Source: Patescibacteria group bacterium (GTDB lineage Bacteria; Patescibacteriota; Patescibacteriia; Veblenbacterales; UBA10138). From it: 56,213 bases of DNA. A model generated the notes under the pieces. The model was not told where the DNA came from. It made no database searches and saw only the letters and a list, made by a program, of their open reading frames with translations. The position numbers and the translations under genes are program-made. The stretch covers positions 1 to 56,213 of the forward strand of contig JBDRTU010000048.1 in assembly GCA_043823825.1 (NCBI GenBank), in the 5' to 3' direction. Every line of letters starts with the position of its first letter. The stretch's first letter is position 1. This document shows, in pieces, positions 1 to 34,500 of this stretch.

Positions 1-481
1 CGTAGTACGTTGCTATATCAAATTCAATACGCCAAGTAAATTTTTTATTGAATACTTCTATCTGTTTATCACAAAAATTAGTCCATTGATTTTGATATGG
101 TTTAAGGTATCTATCTTCACCAAGTATTCTATTTCCAATACAGAAATTATAGAGTTTTTTGTCTACAACATTTCCTAAAACTGATGGATTAAGCAGGGCC
201 TGAAAAACTATTCTATCAACAACAGAGAAAATGCAGATTGGGCGGCCGCCTAAATGGTCTTTTTGAGCCAAAATATAATCAGCCTTATCTGGCTGATATT
301 TTTCTTGCCTTAAATAATTTTGAAGTGTTTCAAAAAATTCATTGCCAAGTTGAGTAATGGCACTTATTGAAGGTCTCCAAATAGGGTCTAGGGGGATAGA
401 ACTTTCATCCACCTCATCCTTAAGGTATTCAAATGCCTGTTTAAGGTTTTCTTTTGAGGAAAATTGAGTGAATAAATCCAT
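1..481 (-). CDS. reverse transcriptase, N-terminal 160 aa only (gene runs off the left edge)
   Basis: Absent from the ORF track because it is truncated. My reverse-complement translation from the ATG at 481-479 gives MDLFTQFSSKENLKQAFEYLKDE...YQPDKADYILAQKDHLGGRPICIFSVVDRIVFQALLNP...NFCIGNR...WRIEFDIATYY. These are RT finger motifs 1-2 (K-x-GG-R-P-I and DRIVxQAL) and the start of motif 3 (hDIxxYY). The frame stays open to position 1. Confidence 0.7.
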   Translation of the reverse strand, partial: MDLFTQFSSKENLKQAFEYLKDEVDESSIPLDPIWRPSISAITQLGNEFFETLQNYLRQEKYQPDKADYILAQKDHLGGRPICIFSVVDRIVFQALLNPSVLGNVVDKKLYNFCIGNRILGEDRYLKPYQNQWTNFCDKQIEVFNKKFTWRIEFDIATYY

Positions 482-567
482 TCTAATTTATGGTAATTGT
501 CATTTAATATACTTGTAATTTACCTTATTTTCTGTTAAAAATAAAGCACAACTTAATGTGGCCTAAA

Positions 568-728
568 CCCGGCTTTCGCTGGGCATGGCTCAAAAACCTG
601 CTACAGGATAAGGAGCTCGTCGTCAGAGCACCTGTAGCGGGTCATATCGGGAAACCGGTATGGGTGGCGAAAGCCATCACTGGCGGCGAGTATTTGTTTT
701 TCGCCAGCAAGAAAGGCCCGCTACAGGC
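568..728 (+). ncRNA. unclassified structured RNA (four-way junction, two GAAA tetraloop hairpins, alternative helix)
   Basis: About 58% G+C by my count, within AT-rich flanks. An 11-bp perfect closing helix (631-641/717-727) encloses hairpins 643-662 (GAAA loop), 663-678 (GAAA loop) and 680-707, plus hairpin 568-583. Three G-U pairs (571-580, 647-658, 664-677) exist only on the + strand. No known Rfam core recognised. Confidence 0.5.
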
Positions 729-894
729 ATGTGCAACAAAATCAGAAAATTTAGAATTGTTTTTTGTAACTTGACAGTTACCTGATTTAGGTATATGCCA
801 AAGGCAGAAAACGGGATACGAAACATTGACAAAATCAAGATTTAACTATACACTAAACGGTTAAAATTTAATCAGTCATTAATATTACAATTAT

Positions 895-3800
895 ATGAAT
901 ATGTTGAGAAAATCACTTATTACCATCGCTGGCGCTGTTTTAGTACTTAATACCACTTATACTCCACTCTCTGCTCTAGCATTATCTGATGAGCCTAAAG
1001 TTAATCTTCAGATGGAACAGTACAATAAGGAGCACACGGTAAATTATCCGACACTTTCTGAAAATAATTTTAATAAAGACGGATTATCTACTCCAAAAAA
1101 GAAACTAGCTACAGACCTACTAAGATTAATTGATAGTAGTTTTTTGTTGCCAACCCAGAGTCGGGCACAGATAATATCAGACATGAAAGTGCAGAAACAG
1201 TTTATTGCGAGTAATGATTCTGTTACAGGTATTGATAAAAGAGTTATAAATAAAACTCATAATGATTTGGTGTATGTTTATGTGAACCTTAAATCAAACA
1301 CATTAACATCAACCATTGATTCATTAGCTTGGAAGGTTTTAGATAGGGATGAGGACAATAATTTAGTAGCAGCTTTGGTTGAGGTTAATAAATTGGAAGC
1401 CCTTGCATCGTTAAGTGGAGTACAGTCGGTAAGTTCTGTCTTAGCGCCGATCACTAATACTGGTTCAGCTATTACCGAGGGAGACATTATTCACCAAACC
1501 GATGATGTTCGCTCTACTTATTCCCAAAGCGGGGCTGGAATAAAAATAGGAGTAATTTCTGATGGTGTTGATAATATAGCGTCATCTAAAAGTTCGGGTG
1601 ATTTACCAGCAGGCGTTACGGTATTAAGTAATTCTTTGGGTGGCGACGAAGGGACAGCAATGCTGGAAATCATTTACGATATGGTTCCAAGTGCAAGTCT
1701 TTATTTTCATGATGCTGGAAGTAATATAATAGCCTTTAATTCAGCGATTGATGACTTGGTAGCCGCTGGGGCTAATGTGATTGTCGATGATGTATTCTGG
1801 ATAGGTGAACCATTTTTTGAAGACGGGACAATCGCATCGCATGTCGCGGCTGTTTTAGCGGCGAATAATATAGTTTATGTCTCGGTTGCTGGTAATAATG
1901 CTTTAAAACATTATCAAGGAGATTATTATAATGATGGAAATGATTATCATGATTTTAGTAGAGGGGCTGCACCTACCTTTAAATATCTTTATGTAAACAT
2001 TCCTAACAATGGAACGGTAACATCCATTTTACAATGGAATGATAGTTTTGGATTATCAGGTAATGACTATGATTTGCTAATGTATAATTTTAGTAGCGGC
2101 AGTTTGATTACTGGTAGTGCTGCAATACAAGACGGGGACGATGATCCAATCGAAGGATTTTCCTACACGAACACGAGTGGGGGTACTATTACCGCCATGA
2201 TTATGGCTTCAAATTACCTGGGAGCTGCAGCCACAAGAACATTAGAATTGTTTATTTATTCCGGTAACGGTGCATCGAATTATTTGGATAACATTACGCC
2301 AAATGATTCAATTTTTGGTCATTCTGCGGTGCCCGGTGTAATTGCTGCGGGTGCAATTGCTGCTAGTGATCCTGGAAATGACAATATAGAGCCATTTTCT
2401 TCTCAAGGCCCTGTAACAATAATTGGGCAAGGACAAAGAGCTAAACCTGATATAGCCGGTATTGATTGCGTGTCGGTTACTGGGGTTGGTGGATTTACTA
2501 CGCCATTTTGTGGTACTAGTGCCGCAGCGCCGCATATAGCAGCCATCGTAGCCCAATTATGGGCGCAGTATCCTTCGGCAACGAGTAATCAAGTTAGAAA
2601 TCACGTATTAAATACGGCAGTAGATTTAGGTACCACGGGAACTGATAATATTTTTGGCCATGGCCGGGCTGACTCATTACTTTCTTTTCAATCTAGTCCA
2701 GCCATTACTGCATTCAGTTTTACCTCACCAGCGGCTATAGGTATTATAAATGAAGCTGAGCACACAATCACGGCCACTGTACCCAATGGTACTGTTGTTA
2801 CTGCCCTTGTACCAACAATTGTAATTACTGGCGCATCGGTCAATCCGCTAAGTGGCACAGCTCAAGATTTTACTAATCCAGTAACGTACACGGCCACTAC
2901 TACAAGCGGGTTAGCCCAAGATTATGTGGTTACAGTAACAGTAAACACCGATCCTGACATCGTAGCTGTCGCTGCAGACAAAACTGCTTTAGTAGACGAT
3001 TCAATAAAAGGTAGTAACCCTGATTTATTAAATATTACAGTAGCCCTTACAAACCCTCTACCATCACTAGGTGATAATGGGTCGGTCATTGCTTGGGAAT
3101 CAGATACTCCAAGTGTGGTCTCAAACGATGGGCAAACAATAAATAGACCAGCTTTTGAAAATGGAGATGCAACTGTTACACTTACCGCAACTTTGACGAA
3201 AGGTGTTGTAACTGATACAAAAATATTCAACCTTACTGTGTTAAAATTACCACTACCAGATCTTACCGCTCCAATACTTGCCGAGATTATTCCTGTGGCT
3301 ACGCCAACTAATGATACTACTCCTGATTACACATTCAGTTCTGATGAAGAGGGGTCTATTCAATATATAGGTAGCTGTTCCGGCGGTACAACTAGCGCAG
3401 TAGTTGGTAATAATGACATTGTCTTTAATGAGTTGACCCAAGGTACTTATGCAGATTGTGCCATCACTGTGACGGATGTCAGCACTAATGTTAGTGACCC
3501 ATTAGTAGTCAGTTCGTTTATCATTGATACAGCGGCGCCCGTAATAACATTAGTTGGTGATGTGGTCATCGAAGTAGTTGTTAACACTGGTTATGTGGAC
3601 GCTGGAGCTACCGCCATTGATAATGTTGATTCCACCGTCGCAGTTATAACGGATAATCCAGTAGCTGATTCTACTATTGGAAGCTATGTTGTTACTTACA
3701 CCGCAACCGATATTGCTGGAAACCCGGCAACACCTGTTACTAGGACAGTAAATGTAGTCGATAATATAGCGCCGGTTATTACTCTACTAGGAAACGCTGA

Positions 3801-6348
3801 AGTAACAGTTAGTGTTGGTTCTACTTACAATGATGCTGGTGCCACCGCTTTAGATAACTATGACGGCGATATAACTAGTGACATTATTGTAGTTAATCCT
3901 GTTAATGAGGCTGTACGTGGTACATACATAGTGACATACAACGTTACTGATTCATCTGGTAATAATGCTGATCAGGTTACCAGAACAGTGAATGTGGTTG
4001 ATGACATTGCGCCAGTGATTACAATTGTTGGTTTTAATCCTGTTTCGCAACTTGCTGGCCAAGATTATATAGATGCCGGCGCCGTGGCCTCGGATAACTA
4101 CGATGGCGATTTAACCACAAACATAATTACGGTAAATACCGTTGATGCCAATACCGTTGGTACTTATTCGGTAACTTATAATGTTACTGACTCATCTGGT
4201 AACGCGGCCATAGAAGCGGTTAGAACAGTGAATATTACGGACGCCACAACACCAATAATTACATTATTAGGCGATAATCCAGCCACAGTTGAAGTTGATA
4301 CTGTATATACTGATGCGGGAGCCACCGCCCTAGATGATATTGATGGCGATATAACAGGCAGCATTGTGGTAGTAAGTAATGTAGACACTAGTATCTTAGG
4401 TTCATATACTGTGACCTACAATGTTTCTGATGCCGCTGGAAATCCAGCCCCAGAGGTTGTTCGAACAGTGAATGTTATTGATACCACACAACCGGTTATT
4501 AGTTTGTTAGGTAATAATCCAGAGAATACGGAAATTGGTTATGTGTATGTAGATGCCGGAGCCACTGCGACTGATAATTACGATGGGGATATAACTGGTA
4601 GTGTTGTGGTAGTGAACAATGTTAATACCAGTATTGCTGGGGCGTATACAGTAACATATAATGTAACCGATTCTTCAAATAACTCTGCCACAGAAGTCAC
4701 GAGAACTGTTAATGTTTCACCAGATGAAACGGCCCCTGTAATTACTATGAATGGTGGCGATATGAATATTTATAAAGGTACTGTTTATGACGACCCAGGC
4801 GCCACTGCTGTAGATAATATTGATGGGGATATTACGGGTAGTATAGTAATCGTTGGTGTGGCGGCTGTTGATACAAATACCCCCGGAGTGTATATAGTCA
4901 CATATAATGTACCTGATGCAGCTGGAAATAGTGCCACAGAAGCGACAAGAACAGTTACTGTTTTAGAAGTCCTGGATGGTCAGGTCGTACTAGGCCCTAG
5001 CATAATTGTAGATACTGATAACCAAGAGATTTTAGTCGGCCATAATATGCCCGATAATTCTAATATCAATATTCCATTAACCGAGACTGGTTCAAAATTA
5101 GATGTGTCGGCACTACTAGTAGGTTCTAACCCAAAGACAGCATCTATATCTGGAGCAATAAACGTCAGCGCACAAACAAATGTTGGTGCAGTATTCATTC
5201 AAATACCACAGAATACTCAAATTAGTGCTGGGGCAGCTTGGAATGGATTAATCAATTTACCTCAGATTCAAGAAAATTCTTCCGTTACAGTCGTGCCGGA
5301 GGCTAATAATACTGCTAGCGTTTCGTCGGTAATTGAAATAGGATTTAGTGATGTAATGTTGAGTTTTGACAAAGCTGTTCGCATTACATTAGCTGGACAA
5401 GCTGGTAGATATGTTGGTTATTCACAGGGAGGGGTATTTACTCAAATAACAGATGTTTGTTCAGCCGACACACAGCAGGTGGGGAATAGTCTAGCGACTA
5501 ATGGTAATTGTAAAATCACTGATGGTTCAGACTTAATTATATGGACCAAGCATTTCACTAAATTCGTAACATATACCCAAACCGCCATTTCGTCCGGCGG
5601 GGGAGGCGGAGGCGGTGGTGGAGGTGGAGGGGGCGGTGGTTCGTACGTACCACCTACACAAGCGGTAAACCAACCAGTAGTTAATGACCCATTAACCCAA
5701 AGGGCGCCACAGGTATTGGGTGTGCAGCAAGAAAATTTAACTGCTATTGTAACCACTGAGGAAAAGGAATTACTTGGTAAAATTGATGTAAATCTAGTTA
5801 AACGCCTAGCTGGTCGTGTTCTGTTGCAGGTAGAAAGGCTTGGTCAGGCCTGGTATCTTGATCCGTTATCACTCAAGAAATATTATTTAGCAGACGGCCT
5901 AAATGCCTTCACAGCTCTTCGTAAGTTTGGCTTAGGTATTACTAACGCTGACCTTGCAAAAATACCTGTTGGCCACGAATCACGCTTCCAAATGGTTGAC
6001 ACCGACAAAGATGGCCTGCCTGACAAACTAGAGGAAGCGCTGGGTACTGATGTAGATAATGTGGATACTGATAGTGACGGCGTAAATGATGGGGTAGAAG
6101 TTCTTACTAACAACACCAATCCATTAGGCGTAGGTAAATTGGCTTACTCTTCTTCGCTAGCTAACCGTCTCAAGGGTCGCATCCTTTTGCAAGTAGAATC
6201 ACGTGGTGAAGCCTGGTATGTGAGTCCAGTAGATGGTAAACGTTATTACATGAATACCGGCGAAGCTGCGTACCAGATTATGCGTTATCTATCCCTTGGT
6301 ATTACAAATACTGACATCCGTAAGGTCCCTGTGGGAGATTTGGAGTAA
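895..6348 (+). CDS. giant secreted S8 (subtilisin-like) serine protease with Ig-like repeats and Ca-binding C-terminus
   Basis: ORF track, 1817 aa. Signal peptide (MNMLRKSLITIAGAVLVLN...ALA). Subtilase triad motifs GVISDGVD (Asp), SHVAAV (His) and GTSAAAPHIAAIVA (Ser). Six Ig-like repeats of about 80 aa. 15-Gly linker (5596-5640). The C-terminus has two LLQVExxGxAWY modules flanking DxDxDG thrombospondin-type-3 repeats. Confidence 0.9.
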   Translation: MNMLRKSLITIAGAVLVLNTTYTPLSALALSDEPKVNLQMEQYNKEHTVNYPTLSENNFNKDGLSTPKKKLATDLLRLIDSSFLLPTQSRAQIISDMKVQKQFIASNDSVTGIDKRVINKTHNDLVYVYVNLKSNTLTSTIDSLAWKVLDRDEDNNLVAALVEVNKLEALASLSGVQSVSSVLAPITNTGSAITEGDIIHQTDDVRSTYSQSGAGIKIGVISDGVDNIASSKSSGDLPAGVTVLSNSLGGDEGTAMLEIIYDMVPSASLYFHDAGSNIIAFNSAIDDLVAAGANVIVDDVFWIGEPFFEDGTIASHVAAVLAANNIVYVSVAGNNALKHYQGDYYNDGNDYHDFSRGAAPTFKYLYVNIPNNGTVTSILQWNDSFGLSGNDYDLLMYNFSSGSLITGSAAIQDGDDDPIEGFSYTNTSGGTITAMIMASNYLGAAATRTLELFIYSGNGASNYLDNITPNDSIFGHSAVPGVIAAGAIAASDPGNDNIEPFSSQGPVTIIGQGQRAKPDIAGIDCVSVTGVGGFTTPFCGTSAAAPHIAAIVAQLWAQYPSATSNQVRNHVLNTAVDLGTTGTDNIFGHGRADSLLSFQSSPAITAFSFTSPAAIGIINEAEHTITATVPNGTVVTALVPTIVITGASVNPLSGTAQDFTNPVTYTATTTSGLAQDYVVTVTVNTDPDIVAVAADKTALVDDSIKGSNPDLLNITVALTNPLPSLGDNGSVIAWESDTPSVVSNDGQTINRPAFENGDATVTLTATLTKGVVTDTKIFNLTVLKLPLPDLTAPILAEIIPVATPTNDTTPDYTFSSDEEGSIQYIGSCSGGTTSAVVGNNDIVFNELTQGTYADCAITVTDVSTNVSDPLVVSSFIIDTAAPVITLVGDVVIEVVVNTGYVDAGATAIDNVDSTVAVITDNPVADSTIGSYVVTYTATDIAGNPATPVTRTVNVVDNIAPVITLLGNAEVTVSVGSTYNDAGATALDNYDGDITSDIIVVNPVNEAVRGTYIVTYNVTDSSGNNADQVTRTVNVVDDIAPVITIVGFNPVSQLAGQDYIDAGAVASDNYDGDLTTNIITVNTVDANTVGTYSVTYNVTDSSGNAAIEAVRTVNITDATTPIITLLGDNPATVEVDTVYTDAGATALDDIDGDITGSIVVVSNVDTSILGSYTVTYNVSDAAGNPAPEVVRTVNVIDTTQPVISLLGNNPENTEIGYVYVDAGATATDNYDGDITGSVVVVNNVNTSIAGAYTVTYNVTDSSNNSATEVTRTVNVSPDETAPVITMNGGDMNIYKGTVYDDPGATAVDNIDGDITGSIVIVGVAAVDTNTPGVYIVTYNVPDAAGNSATEATRTVTVLEVLDGQVVLGPSIIVDTDNQEILVGHNMPDNSNINIPLTETGSKLDVSALLVGSNPKTASISGAINVSAQTNVGAVFIQIPQNTQISAGAAWNGLINLPQIQENSSVTVVPEANNTASVSSVIEIGFSDVMLSFDKAVRITLAGQAGRYVGYSQGGVFTQITDVCSADTQQVGNSLATNGNCKITDGSDLIIWTKHFTKFVTYTQTAISSGGGGGGGGGGGGGGGSYVPPTQAVNQPVVNDPLTQRAPQVLGVQQENLTAIVTTEEKELLGKIDVNLVKRLAGRVLLQVERLGQAWYLDPLSLKKYYLADGLNAFTALRKFGLGITNADLAKIPVGHESRFQMVDTDKDGLPDKLEEALGTDVDNVDTDSDGVNDGVEVLTNNTNPLGVGKLAYSSSLANRLKGRILLQVESRGEAWYVSPVDGKRYYMNTGEAAYQIMRYLSLGITNTDIRKVPVGDLE
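3532..4968 (+). repeat. six tandem ~240-nt coding repeats (bacterial Ig-like, DUF5011/HYR-like) inside the protease gene
   Basis: The protein unit APVITLLG..(Y)xDAGATAxDNxDGDIT..V..V....GTYxVTYNVTDSSGN.....RTVNV recurs six times back to back. Confidence 0.8.
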
Positions 6349-6374
6349 GTATTGACCTTAAAGTTTTTAAAACT

Positions 6375-7232
6375 ATGCAGGGGCGTTTATTGATAATAGC
6401 AAGCATTGCGGTAATACTACTTATTGGTGCTTCATGCGAAGCACCACCCCGAGTCACGTCGGTAAACTCTAGTAATACGCCTGTTGATAATGTGCAGCGA
6501 GCTGTAGAGTCGCCAATAGAAAACCAAGGCGAAGCCGCGGCCGATTCGGCCAGCAATACTCAGGCGCCACTACCATCAGTTGATCTGTACGCAGTAACAC
6601 AAGTGGTTGATGGTGATACATTCAAGGTGGTCATCGGTGATAAAACAGAAACACTTCGCATGATTGGGATAGATACCCCCGAGACTGTTGATCCGCGTAA
6701 ACCAGTCCAATGTTTTGGTGTTGAGGCTTCAAATAAGGCTAAGACGCTTTTAACAGGTAAGAAGGTGAGACTGGAGGCTGATCCGACCCAGGGCGAGCGT
6801 GATAAGTATAGCCGCCTTTTGCGTTATGCGTATCTGGAGGATGGTACATTTTTTAATAAAATTATGATTAGTGATGGTTATGCTCATGAGTATACGTACG
6901 ATGTGCCATATAAGTACCAAGCTGAATTTAACCAAGCTGAGGCAGATGCTCGCAGTAATAAACGTGGCTTGTGGGCTGATGATGCTTGTGTAGAGCCAGT
7001 CGTTACGCCAACACCTACTACACCTACACCATCGCCTGTACCTGTAGTACCACCAGCACCAGCTGCTTCTAATTGCGACCCAAACTACTCAGGGTGTGTG
7101 CCAATTGCTAGCGATGTTGATTGTGCTGGAGGTAGCGGTAATGGTCCAGCATACGTTCGAGGCCCCGTTACTGTCATAGGCATTGATATTTACGGCCTTG
7201 ATAGAGATGGCGACGGTACAGCGTGTGACTAA
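6375..7232 (+). CDS. secreted thermonuclease (SNase family) with C-terminal Excalibur Ca-binding domain
   Basis: 285 aa. Hydrophobic N-terminus. SNase motifs VVDGDTF, GIDTPE, RLLRYAY and RGLW. Pro/Thr linker. C-terminal DRDGDGTACD. Confidence 0.85.
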   Translation: MQGRLLIIASIAVILLIGASCEAPPRVTSVNSSNTPVDNVQRAVESPIENQGEAAADSASNTQAPLPSVDLYAVTQVVDGDTFKVVIGDKTETLRMIGIDTPETVDPRKPVQCFGVEASNKAKTLLTGKKVRLEADPTQGERDKYSRLLRYAYLEDGTFFNKIMISDGYAHEYTYDVPYKYQAEFNQAEADARSNKRGLWADDACVEPVVTPTPTTPTPSPVPVVPPAPAASNCDPNYSGCVPIASDVDCAGGSGNGPAYVRGPVTVIGIDIYGLDRDGDGTACD

Positions 7233-7325
7233 TATTTCAAACCGCCCACAAAACTCCGGCTCGGTATCCCATAGGGCCTAGTCGCAAAAGATGATCGTTT
7301 TCATTTTTGACCTACCTACACGTCC

Positions 7326-7444
7326 TAATTGGCAATTTGTTCTAGGTTCCTTCCAAAATCTCTCCAAGCCTGAAGTTCTACTAATAACTGATTCCAACTT
7401 GCCCTAACAAGGGCTAGGTGATGATAACCAATATTTATAAATTA
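7326..7444 (-). pseudogene. start-less ~38-codon gene-end remnant (..HLALVRASWNQLLVELQAWRDFGRNLEQIAN*)
   Basis: The minus-strand frame is open only between a TAA and a TAG and has no ATG. At protein level it is paralogous to the remnant at 10407-10510 (LVRxSWNQLxxELQxW). Confidence 0.35.
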
Positions 7445-7451
7445 TAAATTT

Positions 7452-8675
7452 ATGTTTTGTCATAATTGCGGTTCAAAAATAAAAGATACTGCTAAATTTT
7501 GTCATAATTGCGGTACGACCAATATTCAAGAAGGTCATCCTACAATATTACAACCAATCCGCCCAGAGACTAAATCAAGCATTAAAATGATTAAGGGGGG
7601 AATATATCGTTGTGGTAATTGTAATTATGAGGGCCCTTCACTAAAAAAAACTTTGGACCCTTGGAGATGGTGGTATTACATAGCCATTTTTTTATTTTTT
7701 CCGATCCTTGCCATTTGGATATTCCTTGATACCGGGTTAAAAAATGTATGCCCGTCATGTAACCAGCGTAGGAAACTAAAACGGCTTCGATATGAGTTGA
7801 TGCCAGAACAAAAACCAACAGATCCGGACACAATGCGAAACAGGTTTCATCGCAATTTTGCAGCAGGCATACTTATTTTATTGATTATCTTTGGTGTAAT
7901 CGGTAGCTTGATTGATGAGGAGACGGATACAACTACAATCTCTAACACCGCCCAGACATCCAATAAAATTGCGAATAACAGTAATGATACTTACAATCAA
8001 AGTGATGTCATTGCATCGATAGTGAATATCTATTGCCCGAGTACTGTGCCCGGAGAAGAGATGTCTGGTGGCTCCGGTACAATTATTACCGACGATGGGA
8101 TGATTTTGACTAACGCACATATCGTGCCACAGGATGAGACATTTATTCACGTGGATGAAACGGGTTGTATGGTAATACTACCAGACGTGATCACAGGTCA
8201 GCCGAATGAGATCTATTTAGCGCATCCAATTGTATTGCCTGATTTAAGTGATCGATATGATTTAGCGTTTATGGAAATTTATGCTGCGTACTATGATGAA
8301 GAAAAAAGCGAATACGCTGGTGCTTATCCCAGAAAATTTCCTAATTTTGATGACGGCGGTCGATGCCAAAACGAAAATGTAAAGCTGGGCGAGACTGTGC
8401 GTATATTTGGTTACCCTGCCATTGGTGGTGGATATTCGCTTACTATTACAGATGGAATTGTGAGTAGTTTTCCGGGTGATGATTTAATAATAACCTCGGC
8501 AAAAATCAGCTACGGAAATTCAGGTGGCCTTGCAGTTGATAAAAATGGATGCATGATCGGCGTGCCTTCTATGGTGAATTCCGATGAACTTGAAAGTCTG
8601 GGGGTTATTATTTCAACAAATTTATTAAATAGCTTTACTGACGAGGTTGAAACTTATATAGCTTCGTTGGAATAA
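7452..8675 (+). CDS. zinc-ribbon / transmembrane / trypsin-like serine protease fusion protein
   Basis: 407 aa. CxxC pairs at the N-terminus (FCHNCG x2, CGNCN..CPSCN), TM helices, then chymotrypsin-fold motifs TNAHIV (His), DLAFMEI (Asp) and GNSGG (Ser). Confidence 0.8.
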   Translation: MFCHNCGSKIKDTAKFCHNCGTTNIQEGHPTILQPIRPETKSSIKMIKGGIYRCGNCNYEGPSLKKTLDPWRWWYYIAIFLFFPILAIWIFLDTGLKNVCPSCNQRRKLKRLRYELMPEQKPTDPDTMRNRFHRNFAAGILILLIIFGVIGSLIDEETDTTTISNTAQTSNKIANNSNDTYNQSDVIASIVNIYCPSTVPGEEMSGGSGTIITDDGMILTNAHIVPQDETFIHVDETGCMVILPDVITGQPNEIYLAHPIVLPDLSDRYDLAFMEIYAAYYDEEKSEYAGAYPRKFPNFDDGGRCQNENVKLGETVRIFGYPAIGGGYSLTITDGIVSSFPGDDLIITSAKISYGNSGGLAVDKNGCMIGVPSMVNSDELESLGVIISTNLLNSFTDEVETYIASLE

Positions 8676-8705
8676 AACACGCTAAATATTTTAAATAATT
8701 ACTTT

Positions 8706-9209
8706 ATGAACCAAATTAATACCAATGATAAAAATTCACAAAGTAATGTAAATTACGCTAATGATCCTTTGGACAGTAAAGTGTGGATAATTGTAAAATA
8801 CATTTTAGTTTTTGTTATCATTAATGGAATAATATGGGGTGGACAAGAACTTTATCACCGAAAAGACACCCAAGCTATCAAGCGACTTGATGAATACCTC
8901 CTAATCGAAAAGGAAACTATTGAGGGATTAGAGAATAAAATTAATGCTGAAAGCACAAATTTAGATGGGTTGCAGGAAGAACTAAATTATTTAGAAGCTA
9001 ATGGTTTTATCGATATGTATAATAACAAAGTTGATCAATATAATGATTTGTTGTACGCATACAAAAATGACCTAGATATTCATGATGATAAAATATCCGA
9101 ATATAATTTAAAGGTTGAAGAGGTTAATAAGTTAATAGAAAAATCAAGCACTAGATGGTATATAATACCCATTCCTTTACCGAATTCGAAAGCTAGGCTC
9201 AGTATTTAG
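8706..9209 (+). CDS. hypothetical membrane-anchored coiled-coil protein
   Basis: 167 aa. One TM helix followed by an Asn/Glu/Lys-rich heptad-like region. Very AT-rich. No family recognised. Confidence 0.6.
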   Translation: MNQINTNDKNSQSNVNYANDPLDSKVWIIVKYILVFVIINGIIWGGQELYHRKDTQAIKRLDEYLLIEKETIEGLENKINAESTNLDGLQEELNYLEANGFIDMYNNKVDQYNDLLYAYKNDLDIHDDKISEYNLKVEEVNKLIEKSSTRWYIIPIPLPNSKARLSI

Positions 9210-9288
9210 AAATAAGACTTTAAATATATAGCTTTCATATCACCAAGTATTACTTGGAAGAATTAAAAATTAAAGAAATAATTATATT

Positions 9289-9915
9289 ATGAAAAACCAA
9301 TTTAAAATTACAGGTAATATGATAGAGTCTGGATTATTATCGACATGGTTTATATTTAATTATTCAGGTGGTACAATAACTGGGATTTGGCTTATTGTAA
9401 TTGGAGAATGGCCGATTGTAATTTTTGGCGCCATAGCCAGCTTTATAATGCCATGGATTTTTAGCCTAGCCATGTTACCCTCAGTGTTGTTTTACGGTCT
9501 TTTGCAACGTGCAATTGAAAAAAGGAGAAAAAAAATGTTTTTCACGCTTGGTTTTATGAATTTGGTTTATACCAATTTTTTGATACTCCTTTGGGTATAT
9601 TTAATCTTCGATTACCTCATTGTTCAAATGCTAGAACAAAATGTAAATCATCCAATTCTATTAACAATTTTTGCCTATGCTATGTGTGCCTCACCATTGG
9701 CTTATATGGCAAAAAACGAAAAAGATTCCGTCGCAACAGACAATGGATTACTTCTGGGATTAGTTTGGTTTATATTACTAACTCTATTTTGGTTTTTGGG
9801 AGGATTTGAGTCAGTAGCACTATCAATGTTTTTCTGGATCCTCTTATTGGGTACTTCATTATTGACAATGAAAACAGCGTCAAAAGTCTTTGATTCGGGC
9901 GTCATCAAGGAATAA
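9289..9915 (+). CDS. hypothetical polytopic membrane protein
   Basis: 208 aa with 5-6 hydrophobic helices. No family recognised. Confidence 0.6.
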   Translation: MKNQFKITGNMIESGLLSTWFIFNYSGGTITGIWLIVIGEWPIVIFGAIASFIMPWIFSLAMLPSVLFYGLLQRAIEKRRKKMFFTLGFMNLVYTNFLILLWVYLIFDYLIVQMLEQNVNHPILLTIFAYAMCASPLAYMAKNEKDSVATDNGLLLGLVWFILLTLFWFLGGFESVALSMFFWILLLGTSLLTMKTASKVFDSGVIKE

Positions 9916-9961
9916 TATTAAAAACGTATTTAAATTTTACCACCTCCCCAGTGTTGCCCAC

Positions 9962-9998
9962 TAAAAAACAAAAGCCGCCCCGTAAAGGGCGGTTTTAT
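9962..9998. terminator. bidirectional intrinsic terminator between convergent genes
   Basis: Hairpin AGCCGCCC-cguaaa-GGGCGGUU, flanked by an A-run on the left and a T-run on the right. Confidence 0.65.
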
Positions 9999-10010
9999 AT
10001 ATTATCCGAA

Positions 10011-10307
10011 TTACAACTGTTTCTTGTTAGGCCACAAGAAATAAAGGGGTAAGTATACTAATAGATTAAACGTAATCACCTGGGTGTAGTAGTTTATCAT
10101 ACCTAACTGGGCAAGCATTGGTCCTCCGCCGCTCCAATATGCCTGTACTTTCAATTCGTTTTTTGAAAACATCAAATCGTAATACTTATCTGTTTCCTGA
10201 CCCGCATGATATAACCAATATAATGAAATCAGCGTCGTTGTCAGTACTATAATCCAACGAATGAGTGATCGGTGCTTTATGAATTGATTTTGTAGGTAAG
10301 TGAACAT
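10011..10307 (-). CDS. hypothetical small membrane protein
   Basis: 98 aa with three hydrophobic segments, followed by the terminator at 9962-9998. Confidence 0.55.
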   Translation of the reverse strand: MFTYLQNQFIKHRSLIRWIIVLTTTLISLYWLYHAGQETDKYYDLMFSKNELKVQAYWSGGGPMLAQLGMINYYTQVITFNLLVYLPLYFLWPNKKQL

Positions 10308-10406
10308 ATATTCTTATACTATATCAATTGACTCAAGAGCACCATTCCTCACCAACACCCATTGGAGCCACATATAAACAATAGTGGTTGGAAGGGTGGG
10401 GTAACT

Positions 10407-10510
10407 TTAGGCACTAGCTGACAGTGCCGCACCCGTCTCCCGCAATTGCTGCCAAACCTGCAATTCCTCAATAAGCTGGTTCCAACTGCGTCTCACGAGG
10501 TCTACCAGAT
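10407..10510 (-). pseudogene. start-less gene-end remnant (..LVDLVRRSWNQLIEELQVWQQLRETGAALSASA*)
   Basis: This is the C-terminal part of track ORF 10407..10619. The upstream part of that ORF is just read-through of the terminator hairpin. It is paralogous to 7326-7444. Confidence 0.35.
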
Positions 10511-10520
10511 ATATTTTAGC

Positions 10521-10553
10521 AAACAAAAACCCTCCCGCCAGTCGGCGGGAGGG
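10521..10553 (-). terminator. intrinsic terminator of the CxxC protein gene
   Basis: 10-bp GC-rich stem (10530-10539/10544-10553) with a 4-nt loop, followed on the minus strand by UUUUUGUUU. Confidence 0.8.
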
Positions 10554-10576
10554 TTTTGCAATAAGTAATTCGCTAA

Positions 10577-10834
10577 TTAATAACGAGGTGGTCGGCTTTT
10601 GCGTAAGCAATCGCGACAACGAATCGTATTTAATCTTGCTGGATCAGGTTGGAAAGGAAGCTGGGTTACATCAGTACCACAATTGGCACATTTGATACCC
10701 AAAGCTGTTACATCCACTAGTTGACGAGGTTCGCGGTTAAAACCACCGCGTCCACCACGAAAACCACCGCGACCGCCTTGGTCGTTGTTAAATCCTTGTC
10801 CTCCACCTGTATTATCTTCGTTTTGGTAGGTCAT
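10577..10834 (-). CDS. small RGG-rich CxxC-x17-CxxC zinc-ribbon protein
   Basis: The track gives 104 aa starting at 10891. I prefer the ATG at 10834 (MTYQNED..) because GGGGGTGA lies about 11 nt upstream. The Gly/Arg-rich region is followed by CANCG...CRDC. Confidence 0.7.
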   Translation of the reverse strand: MTYQNEDNTGGGQGFNNDQGGRGGFRGGRGGFNREPRQLVDVTALGIKCANCGTDVTQLPFQPDPARLNTIRCRDCLRKSRPPRY

Positions 10835-10944
10835 GAAACTTATAGTCACCCCCTTTCTTTGAGAGATATTAGGATGACTATTTCGATTCAAGCCTACCGA
10901 CTAAGCGTTAAGTTGTTTACGAAACTTTATCCTAACTATTTGGC

Positions 10945-10973
10945 AGTATAGTTTAATATCACAAATAAGTCAA
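10945..10973 (-). promoter_or_regulatory. sigma70-like promoter TTGACT-17-TATACT
   Basis: Read on the minus strand, about 110 nt upstream of the CxxC protein gene. Confidence 0.5.
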
Positions 10974-11108
10974 GCACGGCCGGCCGGTGGGGCTTCTATA
11001 GGGCAGAGTTGAGCTCTTATGATTGTTCCGTACAGGTGGTGCCGCTGGTCGGAGTCCCCACCTACACCAAAGGCTTCAGCTGGCAGGGAACCGTACGAAT
11101 AGATTTTA

Positions 11109-11195
11109 TGGTGCCGGAGGAGAGACTCGAACTCTCAATCCCTTGCGGGAACGGGTTTTTGAGACCCGCGTGTATACCGATTCCACCACTCCGGC
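11109..11195 (-). tRNA. tRNA-Leu(CAA), type II with long variable arm, CCA encoded
   Basis: Hand-folded cloverleaf: GCCGGAG/CUCCGGC acceptor, anticodon stem CGGGU/ACCCG with loop CUCAAAA, variable arm CCC-GCAA-GGG, T arm GAGAG-UUCGAGU-CUCUC, then ACCA. Confidence 0.9.
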
Positions 11196-28540: not shown

Positions 28541-31500
28541 ATGTCTCAAAATAAATTATCATCGAAATTTTTAAAACTGACTTCGGGCAGTATAATTATT
28601 GTGGCCTTAGTAGTTGTCTGCTGGCCTGTAGTGGCATCAGCGCAAACCGCTGGCGGTTTAACTAACTTTGCTGGTGAGACTAGTTTAGGTACGCAAGTGG
28701 AGTTAATCAGCACAGTGGCCCGGATTATAAATATTGTTTTAGGTATTTTGGGAGTAATAGCCATTGGCATAATTTTATATGGGGGTTTCTTATGGTTAAG
28801 TTCTCGCGGTAATCAAGAGCAAATTGCCAAAGCAAAAAAAGTTTTAGCCAACGGCTTAATTGGCTTGGTGATTATTCTTACTTCGTTCGCCATTGCTAGT
28901 TTTGTTTTTGGAAAGTTGTATGAAGCAACTGGCGGTCCCAATGCTTGTGCGGTTCCGCCCTGCAACCCGCCGCCACCAAATTTCGGCAGTGATTATTTAA
29001 AAACCAAATGGGTGCAACCAACCAGGGAAAATGTTAAGTTATGTTTTGCGCCACAGGCTGGCTTTAATTATGAGGTTAAAAGTTCTTCACCTGTTAATCA
29101 AGATACTTTCCGCGTTGAAGACGAGGCTGGAAATTTGTTTTATGACGCCGCGTTTGATAGTTATTATCCAGGCGCGGCTGATCCCAATGACGATGTGATC
29201 AGTTTTACCCATCAAGATCATGAGTTTGCCGAAAATACTATTTATACTGTGACACTGCAAAGTTTGACTGGGTATGATCCGCTACGGGCCAAGGATATTT
29301 TTTCCAAAGTGCCATTAATAAAACGATGGAGTTTTAAAACCGGCACTGAATCTGATAATACTGCGCCCGAGGTAGTGCTGCCTACTCAACCTAAAACAAA
29401 CGAAACTGATGTTTGCCGCAAAACGCCTATTCAGGTGGAATTTAACGAGCCAATGCTTACCACCAGCTTTAAGGTTAACGATCCAGCCGCCACGGTAAAA
29501 TTGGAAAAAATAAATGGCTGGAATGGGGCTGTGTTGTCAAACATCACTTTAACTGATCCAAGTTTTGGTCATGATCTGCAAATAGTAACTGTGGCGGCCA
29601 CTACTACTTTAGAGGAAAATGCTTTTTATAAAGTAACCTTGATCGGCGGCATTAATGGCATTAAAGATGCTTGCTCAATTCCATTAGAAAATGACTATGT
29701 TTGGGAGTTTCAAACTGGTACCACAATAAATTGCGAACCAACTATTACCGATGTTGCTCCTATGAAAGGTGATTATAGCGACCATATAAGTGTTAAAGGC
29801 ACTAACTTCTTTAAAGATGGCGAAGTATATTTTAATGATTTTGCTTCGGGCAACAGCAGTTTTGACGGCGAGTCTAATATTCTTTGCTGGAACAGCACCA
29901 GCCGCGACAATGTTACCGCATGTGCCAATAACGAAATCATAGTGCGCGTGCCAGTAGGAGCTACTACTGGACCGGCTTATGACCAAGATGGTTATACTGT
30001 AAGTACAGGTCCAATACAAGTAAAAGTGGATCGTTTTTGGTCTAATAAGTGGACTGGCTTTATTATTGGCAGTCCTTTTATTGGTGAGCTTTCGCCTGGG
30101 CGGGGTGGTGTAGGGCAATACCTAACCATTAGTGGCTGGAATTTTGGCAATGCCGAGGGCGTGGTTTATTTTATTGACTCCAATGGCAATCAAGTTGTGG
30201 CTGAACAGCCGCTTGGTTGTGATGACTGGTGGCAAGAAACAGAGATTGTGGTAAAAGTGCCAGCTGTTTTAGCCGGCCAATTTTACGAAGTGCAGGTGGT
30301 AACTGCCTTAGGCGGCACCAATGCCGGGAATAAGCCAAGCAATACGGAATATTTTAACGTAACAGCTGATCCGCCCGGACCGGGTATTTGCGAACTTAAT
30401 CCTGTTAGTGAAGATATTTTAAATTTGCCAGTGGATATTACAGTTAAGGGCGAACGATTTGGGGCGGCGCCTGGCAAACTTACTTTTGAAACAATTGAGG
30501 CGACTAAGTTTAATCTCCCTGATTATAAATGGACAGCTGGCGAAATTATGAGCCAAACTCCTTTAGTAACTGGTGTTAACGCTTTAGGCAAGGGTGATTG
30601 GCGCGTGCGAGTTACAAGCGGCGGCAAGACTTCTAATTTTAAAAAATTCAGAGTCACTGATATTACAGGCGTTACTGACAATCGGCCGCCCGAAGTAGTG
30701 GATTACCAGTTATGTTCTGCTAATACTCAAAGCCCAAGCCCTTATTACAATACTGAAAATGCTTGTACTAACGCTTTAGTGTCCGCGCGTTTTACTGAAG
30801 TAATGGATGAAACCACTATTGATCTTAATGCCATAGAATTACAAAAGTGCAATAACACGGTTAATTTTGATCCTTTGGCTTGCGCTATTGTTGTTTTGAA
30901 TAATTTAGAATATTTAAGAAATAGCATAAATCAGGTGATTGGTTTTACTGTTAAGCCTGTTCCCGCATTGGAATCTAATTATTGGTACGAAGCAACAATT
31001 AAAAACACTGTTACCAGTTTGGTTGGTCTTTCTATGGTAGCTGATTACACTTGGCACTGGCGAGTTGGGCCAGGTGTTTGTCCAGTAAATAAAGTAATAT
31101 TATCACCCTCTAGTGCTAATTTAGCAGCGGTTGGGGATACGCAAGATTTTAATGCTAACGCTATAGCTACTAATTGTAATATTCTTGAACCCGCCAGTTT
31201 AACTTGGGCTTGGGATTATGGCAATGATCCAGTATCTGATCCGCCGCCACCGGATAGAATTGAGATCAACCAGGCGGTGGCACCTAATCCCAACGCTAAT
31301 AAGTTGTCAATTACAGCTTTAGCTGAAACAGTTAATGGACCGGCTTTTGTTAATGCTGAAACTGAAAACAAAAAAAGCGATGATGCTGATGTTTATGTGG
31401 GCGGCGGTCTGGGCGGAGGGGGGTGCGCCGCGGCAGGGCCGCCAGTAATTACTGATATGAAACCTGTAAATGGCAGGGCAGAAAGCAAAGTAACTACAGT

Positions 31501-34500
31501 TGTTACTATCACGGGCAGGAATTTTGATTGTTCTGGCAGTGTGTATTTTGGCAGTGTTAAAGCCGTTCAAGCCATGTGTGGCAGTTGGGGTCCTAATACA
31601 ATTGTGGTAGCTGCGCCGGTTTTAGCAGCTGGTCAGCATAATGTTAGTGTAGAAACCAGACTAGGCTTATCCACTACTGCTACAGATGCTGACGCGATTC
31701 AGCCAATATTTACTGCTAATAATATTATTCGTCCTGGTATTTGTTCTTTGATGCCAAACCGCGGTCCTGAAGGAACTCGGGTTTCAATTAAAGGATATAA
31801 TTTTACTGATACGCCTCCTCCTACTCCAGTAAACTTTAATACAAGCGCAGTATTTTTTCCTAAATTAGGTACTTTATCACACGTGATACATGATTATACT
31901 AAGTGGTCAAATAAAGAAATAGTATTTAATGTGCCTCCTCCCAGAAGCGGTAAGGCTTGGGTACAAGTTGATTATGGCGCAGCAGGCGGAGGGCTTCGAA
32001 AATCTAATGAAGTGGATTATTACGGTAATCCATATATTACAGATATTATTCCTAGCACTGGTCCAGCCGGCACTTGGGTGACTATCAGGGGTGGAAATTT
32101 TGGAGATTGCTTGAATTTAGGGGTGGCGGTTGGCCAATTGTGTACTGTGGCTTTTACCGATAGCAGTGGCGCGGAAACTTTGTCTGACCCGTTGCCTAGC
32201 GCATGTTTGGCTGAAGATATTTGGACAGATAGAGAAATAATAGTTAAAGTGCCAGATTTTGGCGGTACGCAATTTGATAGTACCGTAACTGTTTATAACG
32301 ATGATCCACCAGCTCTTTCAGTGACTGCTGATAAAAAATTTGATTATAATCCTAATCTACCTTTGGCGCCGGGTTTATGTTCGCTTGCGCCAGATACAGT
32401 AAAGCCGGCTGGTCTACTACCAGAGCCAGCACTACCAGAACCAATTACTTTGAAAGGTGATGGGTTTAGTGCTATTAATAGGCAAATTAATTTTTCTAAT
32501 AAAACTAATTTAATTCCTGTAAACTGGATTGACGATGCTCAAGCTTCTGTTACCGCACCAAATGACACAGAATCTGGTGATGTGACAGTTCAAAAGATAG
32601 TTACTATAAAAGTAGAAAAGTGCAATGGTGTGATGATAGGGGGTATCTGTATTGGTTTTTGGAGTGAGGAAAATAATGATGTAACAGTAATTAGTAATCC
32701 CAAATATTTTACCGTAGGTACAACTACTACCACACCAGGTGATTTGAGAGTAACTGATTTTGTGCCGCTTGATGGGGATACTAACATTTGCCGCAATACG
32801 GCTTTGTCAGCAGTTTTTAATAAGTTAGTTGATAAGAATTCTATTTCATCAACTAATGTTCGTTTAATAGGATCTTTTAATAATTTAGTTTCTAATTCCA
32901 GTTTTGAGAACGTGCTGGGTATTGAGTGGGATACGCCGGTCTGCGCCTCTCGCTCTAATATTAGAGCAAACAGCGGCAGTTGGAGTTTGAATCCTTGTAT
33001 GATTCCTACTACCCAGATTGTTAATGGTTTAACAGTTGGGAAGAAATATCAGGCAAGTGTTTATTGGTGGGCGCAAGGGAATGTTGATTTTTCTGTAGTT
33101 GATCAAAACGGGGAAATAGCCAAAGTGAATGATAACGGCGCAGTTAACGAATGGAGGCGGTTAGAGCTTTCTTTTGTTGCTGCTAGCGAAACAGTTACTT
33201 TAGAATTAATAGAATATGCTGGAAATGCTTTTTTTGACGATGTTGAATTAATACTTTATCCAGAAGTAGTTGGCTCAATAAAACTCGTAAATGATAATAC
33301 GGGAATAAGTAAGTTAAATTTTGTACCAAACGAGCCACTAGAAGGCAATACGCTTTATCGCTTTCGTTTAGGAAATGATTTAAAAGGAAAAGATAGTTCC
33401 TTAATTAATTGTACTATGGCGCCTGGTTGTGAAGTTTCTTTCACTACTGGTTCTTATATTTGTCAGCTGGCGCAAGTTACTATAACACCGCCGCAACGTC
33501 TTTTTAGAAAAGTGTCGGAAAGTCAAGATTTTGAAGCCAAGGCCCTGGCGCCTGATGGGAAAGAGTTAGCGGCCAACTTCACTTGGCAAGAAAAAGATAC
33601 AGCTAATGTGATCACAGTTACTTCACCATTGGATACTAGCATTGTTAGTGTTGAACCCACTGTGACGCTGGCAGAGCCAAATGGAAAAAATGGGCAGGCG
33701 ACCATGACTGTAACAGCTAATGCGGGCGTGGCTGGCACCAAGAGCGCCTCGGCCGAGGTAGAAGTGTTTATTTGCGAAGATCCTTTTATTTATCAAGATA
33801 GCGATTATAATTTTGAATTTAAGTATTGCGTGGCTAAAGTATTAGGCGGACTAACTTTACCTAGGTTATCTGCACCGGTGGTGCGAGATTTGGTAATTAA
33901 TCCCGAATCAAACGATCCTGATTTATTAAAAGAGATATTATTTAATGTGGAGGATGCCGAAGACATTATTGGCTTGCGGATTTATACTAACCTTAATCGT
34001 TTAACTCCCGCGGACTGGCTCAAGAATAAGCCACAAGGCAGCTCAGCCACGATTAGTAGTTTTACAATTGATGGTTACGAAGCGGGTCAAGGCGGGCAAA
34101 CTGTTTATATAACAGCGCCAAATGTTACGGCCGGAGGCAATATTTGGCTTAATGAATATTTACTGTCTTATAATACCAACGCCCGCGCAGATAGCCAGAC
34201 TATTTATAATGAGTTAAAAAACAGTTGGCAGTTTAATACTAATCTGGCAAGTGTTACTAGCAAACAGCAAATGCGTGCTGATTTACAGCGTTTGACCGAC
34301 CTAAATACAATGCGCGAGATTTTTGATCGCTATGCAGTGTTACATAATTACACTGTGCCGCAGTTGCCAGCTGGCAGTTACGTGCCTGGTTTTTCTACCA
34401 GCAAATGGAATTCCTGGCAGCAGACTTTAAGCAGTACTTTGGGTAGAAATCTGCCCAAAGATCCAATTAATAAGTTGGTTAATTGCGAAGGCAATGTGGG

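Follow-up and report, generated by a model that had tools for sequence, protein, structure and literature searches.

A LOOT RNA element with its own promoter on a Patescibacteria contig, a candidate two-state leader carried on mobile elements

The LOOT motif comes from the Breaker/Weinberg collections and is one of 224 candidate RNAs described by Weinberg et al. (2017; PMC5737381). The Rfam 14 paper (PMC7779021) presents it as a family based on metagenomes, and it has been cited for its six helices, its ~43 bp and its many cross-covariations (PMC7657543). No function is assigned to LOOT in the literature that we searched, which did not extend to the supplement of the discovery paper. Among leader RNAs of mobile elements, P4 CI RNA pairs with seqA, which lies upstream of it, and with seqC, which lies downstream, and for Gifsy-1 IsrK there are a short and a read-through isoform (PMC4825925). 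Here we describe a LOOT RNA on contig JBDRTU010000048.1 of a Patescibacteria group bacterium (assembly GCA_043823825.1), a stretch of 56,213 nucleotides which we call the window, and compare it with its relatives. A reading of the letters alone, referred to below as the original prediction, had pointed to positions 568-728 as a structured RNA beside a reverse transcriptase (RT) gene.

The Rfam scan of the whole window gave three matches: two tRNAs and LOOT RNA (RF03000). LOOT was matched at 560-678 on the + strand with 92.8 bits (E = 1.7e-16), twice the gathering threshold of 46.4 bits. The copy spans the model from end to end (positions 1-121 of 121) and shows no difference from it inside these 121 positions. 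In a permissive scan of 450-900 there was no other credible family besides LOOT, and the Rfam C4 family (P4 CI and P1 c4 type) gave no match even at E up to 1. The hallmarks of the family are all present at this place. The CCUAA...GCAUGG internal loop in P1 is followed by an A-rich linker (GGCCUAAAC...GGGCAUGGCUCAAAAA, 560-596), and then come the long P2 hairpin and two adjoining tetraloop hairpins, P3 and P4. Positions 513-727 (+) are therefore a complete LOOT RNA element including its promoter, and of the LOOT identity we have practically no doubt. The original prediction could match the RNA to no known family and had itself named a confident Rfam hit as one result that would refute it; the full-length match is such a hit. 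The element is thus a further copy of a catalogued family, and the new part is the anatomy and context of LOOT. The RF03000 model stops at P4. Beyond it lie a promoter, a 5' motif, a 3' pseudoknot strand and a U tract, which are common to the window and ~90 relatives, and two further helices, P5 and ALT, which occur in subsets of the copies only. The parts of the window copy inside the model are the following.

560-563/587-590 (+): outer stem of P1, from the Rfam alignment.
564-567 and 584-586 with their flanks (+): conserved internal loop of P1, CCUAAA/CAUGG, from the Rfam alignment.
568-573/578-583 (+): inner hairpin of P1, 6 bp; the helix is 94.9% paired, with 5/6 pairs changed on both sides.
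591-596 (+): A-rich linker CAAAAA from P1 to P2, seen in the Rfam consensus and, in the gathered set, partly imposed by the search pattern.
597-607 (+): 5' strand of P2, CCUGCUACAGG, partner of 631-641 in the Rfam consensus structure.
631-641 (+): 3' strand of P2 and switch strand, CCUGUAGCGGG, partner of 597-607 (P2) or 717-727 (ALT) according to Rfam and duplex energies.
643-662 (+): P3 hairpin, 8 bp with a GAAA loop, 95.9% paired and with 8/8 pairs changed on both sides.
663-678 (+): P4 hairpin, 6 bp with a GAAA loop, from Rfam and covariation; the end of the Rfam model.

The block stands out from its AT-rich surroundings, as had been noted: G+C is 57.1% in 568-728, compared with 20.5% in 482-559 and 27.7% in 729-894. 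The minimum free energy (MFE) fold of the + strand of 556-735 has -80.9 kcal/mol in ViennaRNA, compared with -60.6 +/- 4.4 kcal/mol for dinucleotide shuffles (z = -4.65), and 0/200 shuffles were as good. The minus strand folds worse (-67.4 kcal/mol, z = -3.78). The + sense had been proposed from three G-U pairs (571-580, 647-658 and 664-677) which are specific to this strand, and both the weaker minus-strand fold and the strand of the Rfam match agree with it. The predicted hairpins at 568-583, 643-662, 663-678 and 680-707 are all present as described. That the structure is more than chance follows from the z-score of the fold, from the Rfam E-value (1.7e-16) and from covariation among ~90 relatives.

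The relatives were gathered with a DNA pattern taken from P1, searching viral contigs and one genome per species. The genome search gave at least 119 pattern matches, and 101 of those listed passed a structural filter; family counts rest on the matches listed. They are given over up to 104 LOOT loci, the genome loci having been fetched at no more than 8 kb each. All 18 of the relatives sampled scored above the RF03000 threshold, with 53-94 bits. In the viral contigs a loose pattern gave 120 matches with 2 true LOOTs and a stricter one gave 15 matches with ~6 true LOOTs, which suggests that LOOT is not mainly a phage RNA. True copies come almost entirely from genome bins of Patescibacteria, also called the Candidate Phyla Radiation (CPR), and the non-CPR records proved to be false pattern matches. 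The host groups are Saccharibacteria, Paceibacterota/Parcubacteria and Levy-, Curtiss-, Roizman-, Yanofsky-, Staskawicz-, Doudna-, Berkel- and Dojkabacteria.

A number of genuine copies stand in records with other titles: 'uncultured Gammaproteobacteria' (L134, L146, L171-L173, L188, L198, L208 and L215), 'Pacearchaeota archaeon' (L200), 'Bacilli' (L180), 'Sulfotelmatobacter' (L196) and 'Sediminibacterium' (L195). One non-CPR-titled record is an 886-kb 'chromosome' (OZ246416.1). These records look like mislabelled or mis-binned Patescibacteria sequences. The Doudnabacteria contig CAWINB010000004.1 carries two copies ~200 kb apart (L158 and L204), with different P2 sequences and different downstream genes, so LOOT is multi-copy in at least some genomes. 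We also considered arrays like those of integron attC sites. There is at most one LOOT per 8-kb locus, and Rfam did not confirm the other loose match seen in L234, so this arrangement was rejected.

Parsing of the strands by per-sequence MFE worked for 89/99 sequences, and these 89 copies were used to examine the fold. Covariation was scored on a plain MAFFT alignment which was fitted to no structure. The whole-structure score is 0.559, compared with 0.215 for shuffles, 0/500 of which were as high, and 0.08-0.21 for slid controls. The helices P1, P3 and P4 are 84-96% paired and show changes on both sides. P2 is hypervariable yet always complementary, with 85 distinct strands in 89 loci. In the MAFFT alignment P2 is only 56.8% paired, a register artefact, and for this reason cognate and non-cognate duplex energies were compared instead. 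The P2 duplex has -16.0 kcal/mol with its own partner and -3.6 kcal/mol with other partners, and the own partner is best or tied in 81/89 loci. The pairing of 600-607 with 631-638 that had been proposed as an alternative is real and, extended to 597-607/631-641, is the consensus P2. The P3 loop is GAAA in 88/89 copies. The P4 loop varies and can be any of the stable tetraloops (GCAA in 38, GAAA in 24, UUCG in 9 and GUAA in 8 copies).

The 11-nt receptor for GAAA tetraloops, as in the P4-P6 domain of group I introns, has the sequence CCUAAG/UAUGG. The P1 internal loop of LOOT, CCUAAA/CAUGG, agrees with it at 9/11 positions; the closing G-U of the canonical receptor is replaced by A/C. The loop sequence was imposed by our search pattern and its conservation rests on the Rfam consensus. 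By analogy, it is reasonable to suppose that the GAAA loop of P3 may dock on the receptor-like loop of P1. A kink-turn in the P1 internal loop was ruled out because there are no tandem G-A pairs.

Beyond the model, the comparison points to a long pseudoknot, T, followed by a U tract.

615-626 (+): 5' strand of T, in the apical loop of P2, from covariation and duplex energies.
680-691 (+): 3' strand of T, CUGGCGGCGAGU, beyond the Rfam model, from covariation and duplex energies.
692-701 (+): U-rich tract, AUUUGUUUUU, directly 3' of T, from the sequence and the family-wide U count.

T is a 12-bp helix in which 12/12 pairs have changed on both sides across the 89 copies. Overall 87.5% of its alignment cells are paired, and the figure is 97-100% in the 8 core pairs. 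The duplex with a copy's own tail has -22.0 kcal/mol, compared with -12.0 kcal/mol for the tails of other loci, and the own tail lies in the best decile in 86/89 copies. In the window the duplex is 12 bp at -21.5 kcal/mol. T and a small apical hairpin of the Rfam model (615-618/626-629) overlap and are therefore mutually exclusive. Taken together, the comparative data show a conserved fold of P1 to P4 with pseudoknot T. The four-way junction of the original prediction was ruled out as the conserved fold: it lies partly outside the model and is closed by a helix, ALT, found in ~13% of copies, whereas P2 is conserved.

After T there are 5-8 U within 9 nt in 89/89 copies, and three U positions are at least 90% conserved. 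T and the U tract look like a terminator, as a G+C-rich helix is followed at once by a U-rich tract. We saw in addition that the invariant ACAA at 548-551 could pair with a conserved UUGU in the U tract (694-697) to give a closing helix of 4 bp in all loci; both motifs are too invariant for a covariation test. Two other ideas about this region were set aside. A topology like that of the hepatitis delta virus (HDV) ribozyme was considered for the P2/T pseudoknot with its enclosed hairpins and was ruled out; there is no room for an equivalent of P3/L3 because only 4 nt separate the 5' strand of T from the 3' strand of P2. That the A-rich linker pairs with the U tract is unlikely on pseudoknot geometry, a matter of reasoning only.

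The 5' end of the element is also conserved.

513-541 (+): candidate promoter of the extended -10 type, TTGTAA (513-518), a 17-nt spacer, TG (533-534) and TAAAAA (536-541).
548-557 (+): conserved 5' motif, ACAACTTAAT, with the family consensus ACAATTTAAT, at the predicted transcription start.

Upstream of the LOOT core there are an extended -10 promoter and a conserved motif, ACAAUUUAAU. With 2 mismatches and a distance of 45 nt from the core as the upper limits, this 5' motif is present in 84/104 loci and in 10.6% of shuffles. Its start lies 10-20 nt upstream of the GCC at the opening of P1 (window 561). At no more than 1 mismatch it occurs 61 times upstream of LOOT, and elsewhere in the loci there are 178 occurrences against 188 expected. 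As it is at chance level away from LOOT, it was ruled out as a general promoter element of the host genomes. In the 84 loci a TGnTAtaaT profile is seen in the 16 nt that precede the motif, with a gap of 6-7 nt between the two, and the -10 hexamer of the window ends 6 nt before 548-557, at the matching position. A generic promoter scan made no call at 513-541. The family-wide -10 box at the same place supports the promoter that had been proposed here as a weak candidate.

The position of LOOT relative to its neighbours suggests what this promoter serves. LOOT and the nearest gene downstream of it share a strand in 80/85 loci (94%). The background is 0.69 (p = 1e-8), the frequency with which neighbouring genes of these loci are co-oriented. 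On the upstream side the gene is divergent in 58/96 loci (p = 3e-9). From the start of the U tract to the downstream ATG there are a median of 43 nt, and in 75% of loci no more than 60 nt, a space in which a separate promoter for the next gene would usually not fit. The promoter, the co-orientation and the short distance to the ATG together indicate that LOOT heads a transcription unit.

Two alternative helices lie at the 3' end of the element.

702-707 (+): 3' strand of P5, CGCCAG, partner of 680-685, duplex -11.1 kcal/mol; it excludes T.
717-727 (+): ALT partner, CCCGCUACAGG, a downstream copy of the 5' strand of P2 that abuts the ATG at 729-731.
729-785 (+): open reading frame (ORF) of 18 codons, MCNKIRKFRIVFCNLTVT, starting right after the ALT copy.

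The ALT helix, 631-641/717-727, is the one that the original prediction had placed at the base of its structure. It is a perfect 11 bp, has a duplex energy of -21.4 kcal/mol and is present in the MFE fold of 556-735, which contains the four-way junction of the original prediction. The proposed either/or pairing of 631-641 holds good. A copy of the P2 5' strand that can form ALT (own energy -14 kcal/mol or lower) is found in 12/89 loci (~13%), compared with 0.66% of non-cognate pairs (p = 1e-12), and the loci that bear it have at least 10 different P2 sequences. Exact copies of the strand are confined to the zone 21-66 nt downstream of the U tract start. Copies further off, of either P2 strand, which might mark targets in trans, were not above chance within the LOOT loci. 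In the loci with a clear start of the downstream ORF (L058, L127, L128, L147, L165, L170 and L141) the ALT copy lies between just upstream of the ATG and just inside the ORF, and in L141 it is at codons 4-8 of the downstream ORF. In other ALT-bearing loci the equivalent ATG begins a real downstream gene.

P5 (680-707) is a 6-bp hairpin between the 5' half of the T 3' strand and a segment after the U tract. Across the family its own partner gives -11.1 kcal/mol and other partners give -9.1 kcal/mol, a modest difference; the own partner is in the best decile in 26/89 loci (binomial p = 4e-7). P2 is thus opposed by ALT and T by P5, so that for each long-range LOOT helix a substitute that excludes it lies further 3'. 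The states differ little in energy in the window, with -69.5 kcal/mol for P2 and P5 without T and -73.9 kcal/mol for ALT and P5; P2 together with T cannot be scored by the nearest-neighbour model.

A final part of the evidence is the company that LOOT keeps. A large serine recombinase gene is present in the fetched DNA of 44/104 loci, and in 38 of those 44 it is upstream and divergent, far more often than by chance (examples are L127, L147, L155, L168, L171, L187, L192, L195, L200, L223 and L239). It is the immediate upstream neighbour in 18/97 loci. Upstream DNA of 5 kb or more is available for 39 loci, and in 17 of them a divergent recombinase gene starts no more than 3.7 kb from LOOT. These counts suggest that recombinase and LOOT form a conserved module on Patescibacteria integrative elements. 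In L165 and L212 the recombinase has a tRNA gene beside it, and on the viral contig L003 LOOT has a ParB-methylase/terminase/recombinase block on one side and a protease gene on the other. The recombinases, the tRNA flanks and the viral contigs together indicate that LOOT is frequently part of integrative elements or phages. The downstream genes encode Zn-ribbon proteins, DNA methylases and restriction enzymes, bPH_2 and DUF4352 proteins, S8 and trypsin-like proteases and SNase. There are 43 Pfam families among 97 downstream proteins, the largest groups being DNA methylase or restriction-modification (~8) and Zn-ribbon (7), and the PHROGs assignments are equally mixed. The genes downstream of LOOT in the window (S8 protease, SNase and a Zn-ribbon trypsin-like protease) belong to the same families as the cargo of the relatives.

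The explanation that fits these data best overall, and towards which we lean without much margin of confidence, is that the LOOT element with its own promoter is a cis-acting two-state leader or attenuator carried on mobile elements. The broader part of this explanation, that LOOT acts in cis as the 5' leader of the downstream gene, is probably correct. We put forward the specific mechanism, an attenuator combined with a start-site switch, only tentatively, as something that may well prove otherwise. In it, T and the U tract would act as the attenuator, so that part of the transcripts would end as a LOOT RNA of ~150 nt. Transcripts that read through could take either of two states. In one, the LOOT fold (P2 with T) would leave the downstream start region free. 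In the other, ALT (631-641/717-727) and P5 (680-685/702-707) would form and the translation start would be hidden. The balance between them might be set by a ligand, a protein, temperature or the kinetics of folding.

Several observations weigh against this explanation. The two strands of T are ~53 nt apart, with the 3' strand of P2, P3 and P4 between them, where an intrinsic terminator is a simple hairpin, and a terminator scan of the window made no call at T and the U tract. Because T forms a branched pseudoknot with P2 and not a simple hairpin, it is no more than a putative intrinsic terminator. Both the expression and the termination of LOOT are read from sequence for every copy. The two effects assigned to the LOOT fold are opposed, as T would end transcripts and the same fold would free the start site. 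ALT and P5 belong to subsets of the family, ~13% and roughly 30% of loci respectively. In the window itself, the ATG after the ALT copy opens only the 18-codon ORF, which may be a remnant or a leader peptide. The S8 protease starts 167 nt after the element, and a promoter-like TTGACA-17-TACACT (10/12 matches) lies at 826-854 (+), 40 nt upstream of its start. Here the protease may thus be independent of the promoter of LOOT, and the link to the giant protease drawn in the original prediction is a loose one here. The mixture of downstream functions argues against a metabolite regulon, and Rfam types LOOT as 'Gene; sRNA'.

This last entry leads to the strongest of the alternatives, which we nevertheless regard as somewhat unlikely: LOOT could be a stand-alone, trans-acting small RNA (sRNA) of ~150 nt, for example a protein-binding one, and the co-orientation of the downstream genes would reflect tolerated read-through. 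Besides the Rfam type, the element's own promoter and the terminator-like 3' end seen in every copy would suit such an RNA, the downstream genes are functionally unrelated, and the invariant GAAA loop and receptor-like loop would be appropriate in a particle that binds a protein or a ligand. Position speaks against it: 94% of downstream genes share the strand of LOOT, their start codons follow the U tract at a median of 43 nt, and copies of the P2 5' strand are found at the start of the adjoining gene. Within the loci, distal copies of either P2 strand are not above chance.

The mobile-element context raises a second alternative, namely that LOOT is an immunity or address-type leader RNA of integrative elements, like P4 CI, P1 c4 and Gifsy-1 IsrK. 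The hypervariable 3' strand of P2 would be the specificity determinant, pairing upstream and downstream and controlling the rightward genes. The divergent recombinases, the tRNA genes beside them in L165 and L212 and the terminase genes beside LOOT in L003 are all what such an RNA would be expected to have around it, and the 85 distinct P2 sequences in 89 loci would suit an address. The cargo resembles prophage accessory (moron) or defence genes. Additionally, the upstream, internal and downstream complementarity mirrors seqA-CI-seqC of P4 (PMC4825925). This C4-type layout of strands, with an internal strand that has an upstream and a downstream complement, is found in the window and in 12/89 loci, however, and most copies are without the downstream site. 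There is no match to Rfam C4 or to any other family, many LOOT loci have no recombinase in the DNA available, and processing and action in trans would be carried over by analogy only. We therefore consider this alternative unlikely.

Less likely again is a classical riboswitch, in which P1-P4 with T would be the aptamer for a small molecule or ion and T, P5 and ALT the expression platform. The 5' leader position is right for a riboswitch, as are the mutually exclusive helices over a terminator-like element and a start region, and the ornate conserved fold with its pseudoknot and a probable tetraloop-receptor contact would be at home in an aptamer. The downstream genes, on the other hand, form no functionally coherent set, and the element is often on mobile elements. 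Beyond the receptor-like loop there are few invariant unpaired nucleotides from which a binding pocket could be made, and no ligand has been reported in the papers searched since the family was published in 2017.

The original prediction had placed the RNA beside the RT gene. The minus-strand ORF 481..1 is the truncated N-terminus of an RT whose best PADLOC model is RT_UG19 (E = 3.6e-17). RT_UG19 is an uncharacterised reverse transcriptase of the UG/DRT class. Within the fetched loci, RTs related to the two tested are present in only 5/104, and the five closest metagenomic homologues of the RT (60-77% identity, L240-L244) are in different contexts, with LOOT in 0/5. The DNA similarity between the window and these homologues reaches only to about position 512, ~30 nt upstream of the RT start. 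Taken together, this indicates that the adjacency is a coincidence of two accessory modules. Although the element starts less than 80 nt from the RT gene, and on the viral contig L058 LOOT is directly downstream of an RT on the same strand, LOOT as a retron msr/msd or DRT template RNA for the UG19-like RT is so improbable, given these counts and its place on the opposite strand in the window, that the general link can be regarded as refuted.

Returning to the two-state leader that we favour, the recombinase data allow a wider version of it, which is speculative and in our judgement doubtful. LOOT would be the promoter-plus-leader module of widespread serine-recombinase mobile elements across the CPR. 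The recombinase would point one way, and divergently from it a bistable leader would drive an ever-changing cargo of restriction-modification enzymes, nucleases, proteases and membrane proteins. P2 would then be an element-specific address or immunity determinant like P4 CI and P1 c4, or the module would be an integron-like expression platform.

Some further features of the loci were recorded. In the DNA that separates the recombinase gene from the LOOT promoter, at 60-150 nt upstream of LOOT, two recurrent sequences were seen by eye (for example in L192, L171, L239, L147 and L223): GTCCAGAC and a tandem GTWGGYAAC-N2-3-TGTWGRTAAC-like repeat. These could be operator or attachment sites. A protein of ~350-375 amino acids recurs directly downstream of LOOT (L058 4406-5461 (-), L142 4720-5790, L143 2017-3141, L176 7572-8000 and L247), with the N-terminus M(A/S)IIISKNGKNAV..F..ED.LQ.YIY.NPESIPLY.IKEDI.LLILAREF. 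For its L058 member a Pfam search up to E = 0.001 gave no match; the other members were scanned in bulk only.

In the window, a tRNA-Leu(CAA) gene at 11109-11195 (-) separates an accessory block (1-11100: RT, LOOT, S8 protease, SNase, Zn-ribbon trypsin-like protease and an unknown ORF at 9289-9915) from housekeeping genes (ParA, RelA/SpoT, TopA, Mfd, Der, HisRS, FtsA and RNR). The accessory block may be a genomic island. Its G+C content, 40.1%, does not differ from the 40.3-42.6% of three segments beyond the tRNA. A second giant protein is encoded by an ORF of 3099 amino acids at 28541-37840 (+).

LOOT was known from metagenomes only when it was published. The comparison supplies a host range, Patescibacteria/CPR and their phages or islands, and a transcription unit with a 3' pseudoknot and U tract that are absent from the Rfam model and with two mutually exclusive helix pairs. 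It also supplies a strong positional link to large serine recombinase genes. With this, an 'unknown sRNA' is turned into hypotheses that can be tested in the few cultivable Saccharibacteria, and the family model can be improved. Very few regulatory elements have been characterised in Patescibacteria, and a conserved promoter-leader cassette could serve as a genetic tool.

In comparison with known systems, LOOT resembles the retron msr/msd and DRT non-coding RNAs in being a structured RNA beside an RT gene; it differs from them in lying on the opposite strand and in having no conserved association in either direction. It shares with riboswitch leaders that have pseudoknot aptamers a leader position, a conserved tertiary fold and exclusive helices at a terminator-like element or start, and differs in the lack of a ligand and of a coherent regulon and in its carriage on mobile elements. 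With P4 CI, P1 c4 and Gifsy-1 IsrK it has no sequence or Rfam relationship; additionally, its internal strand is normally sequestered in P2, and the downstream target is present in only ~13% of copies. What it has in common with these three is a structured leader RNA on a mobile element, an internal strand that is complementary to sequences upstream and downstream, the latter at the start of the next gene, and a terminator, in LOOT a predicted one, that yields short and read-through isoforms.

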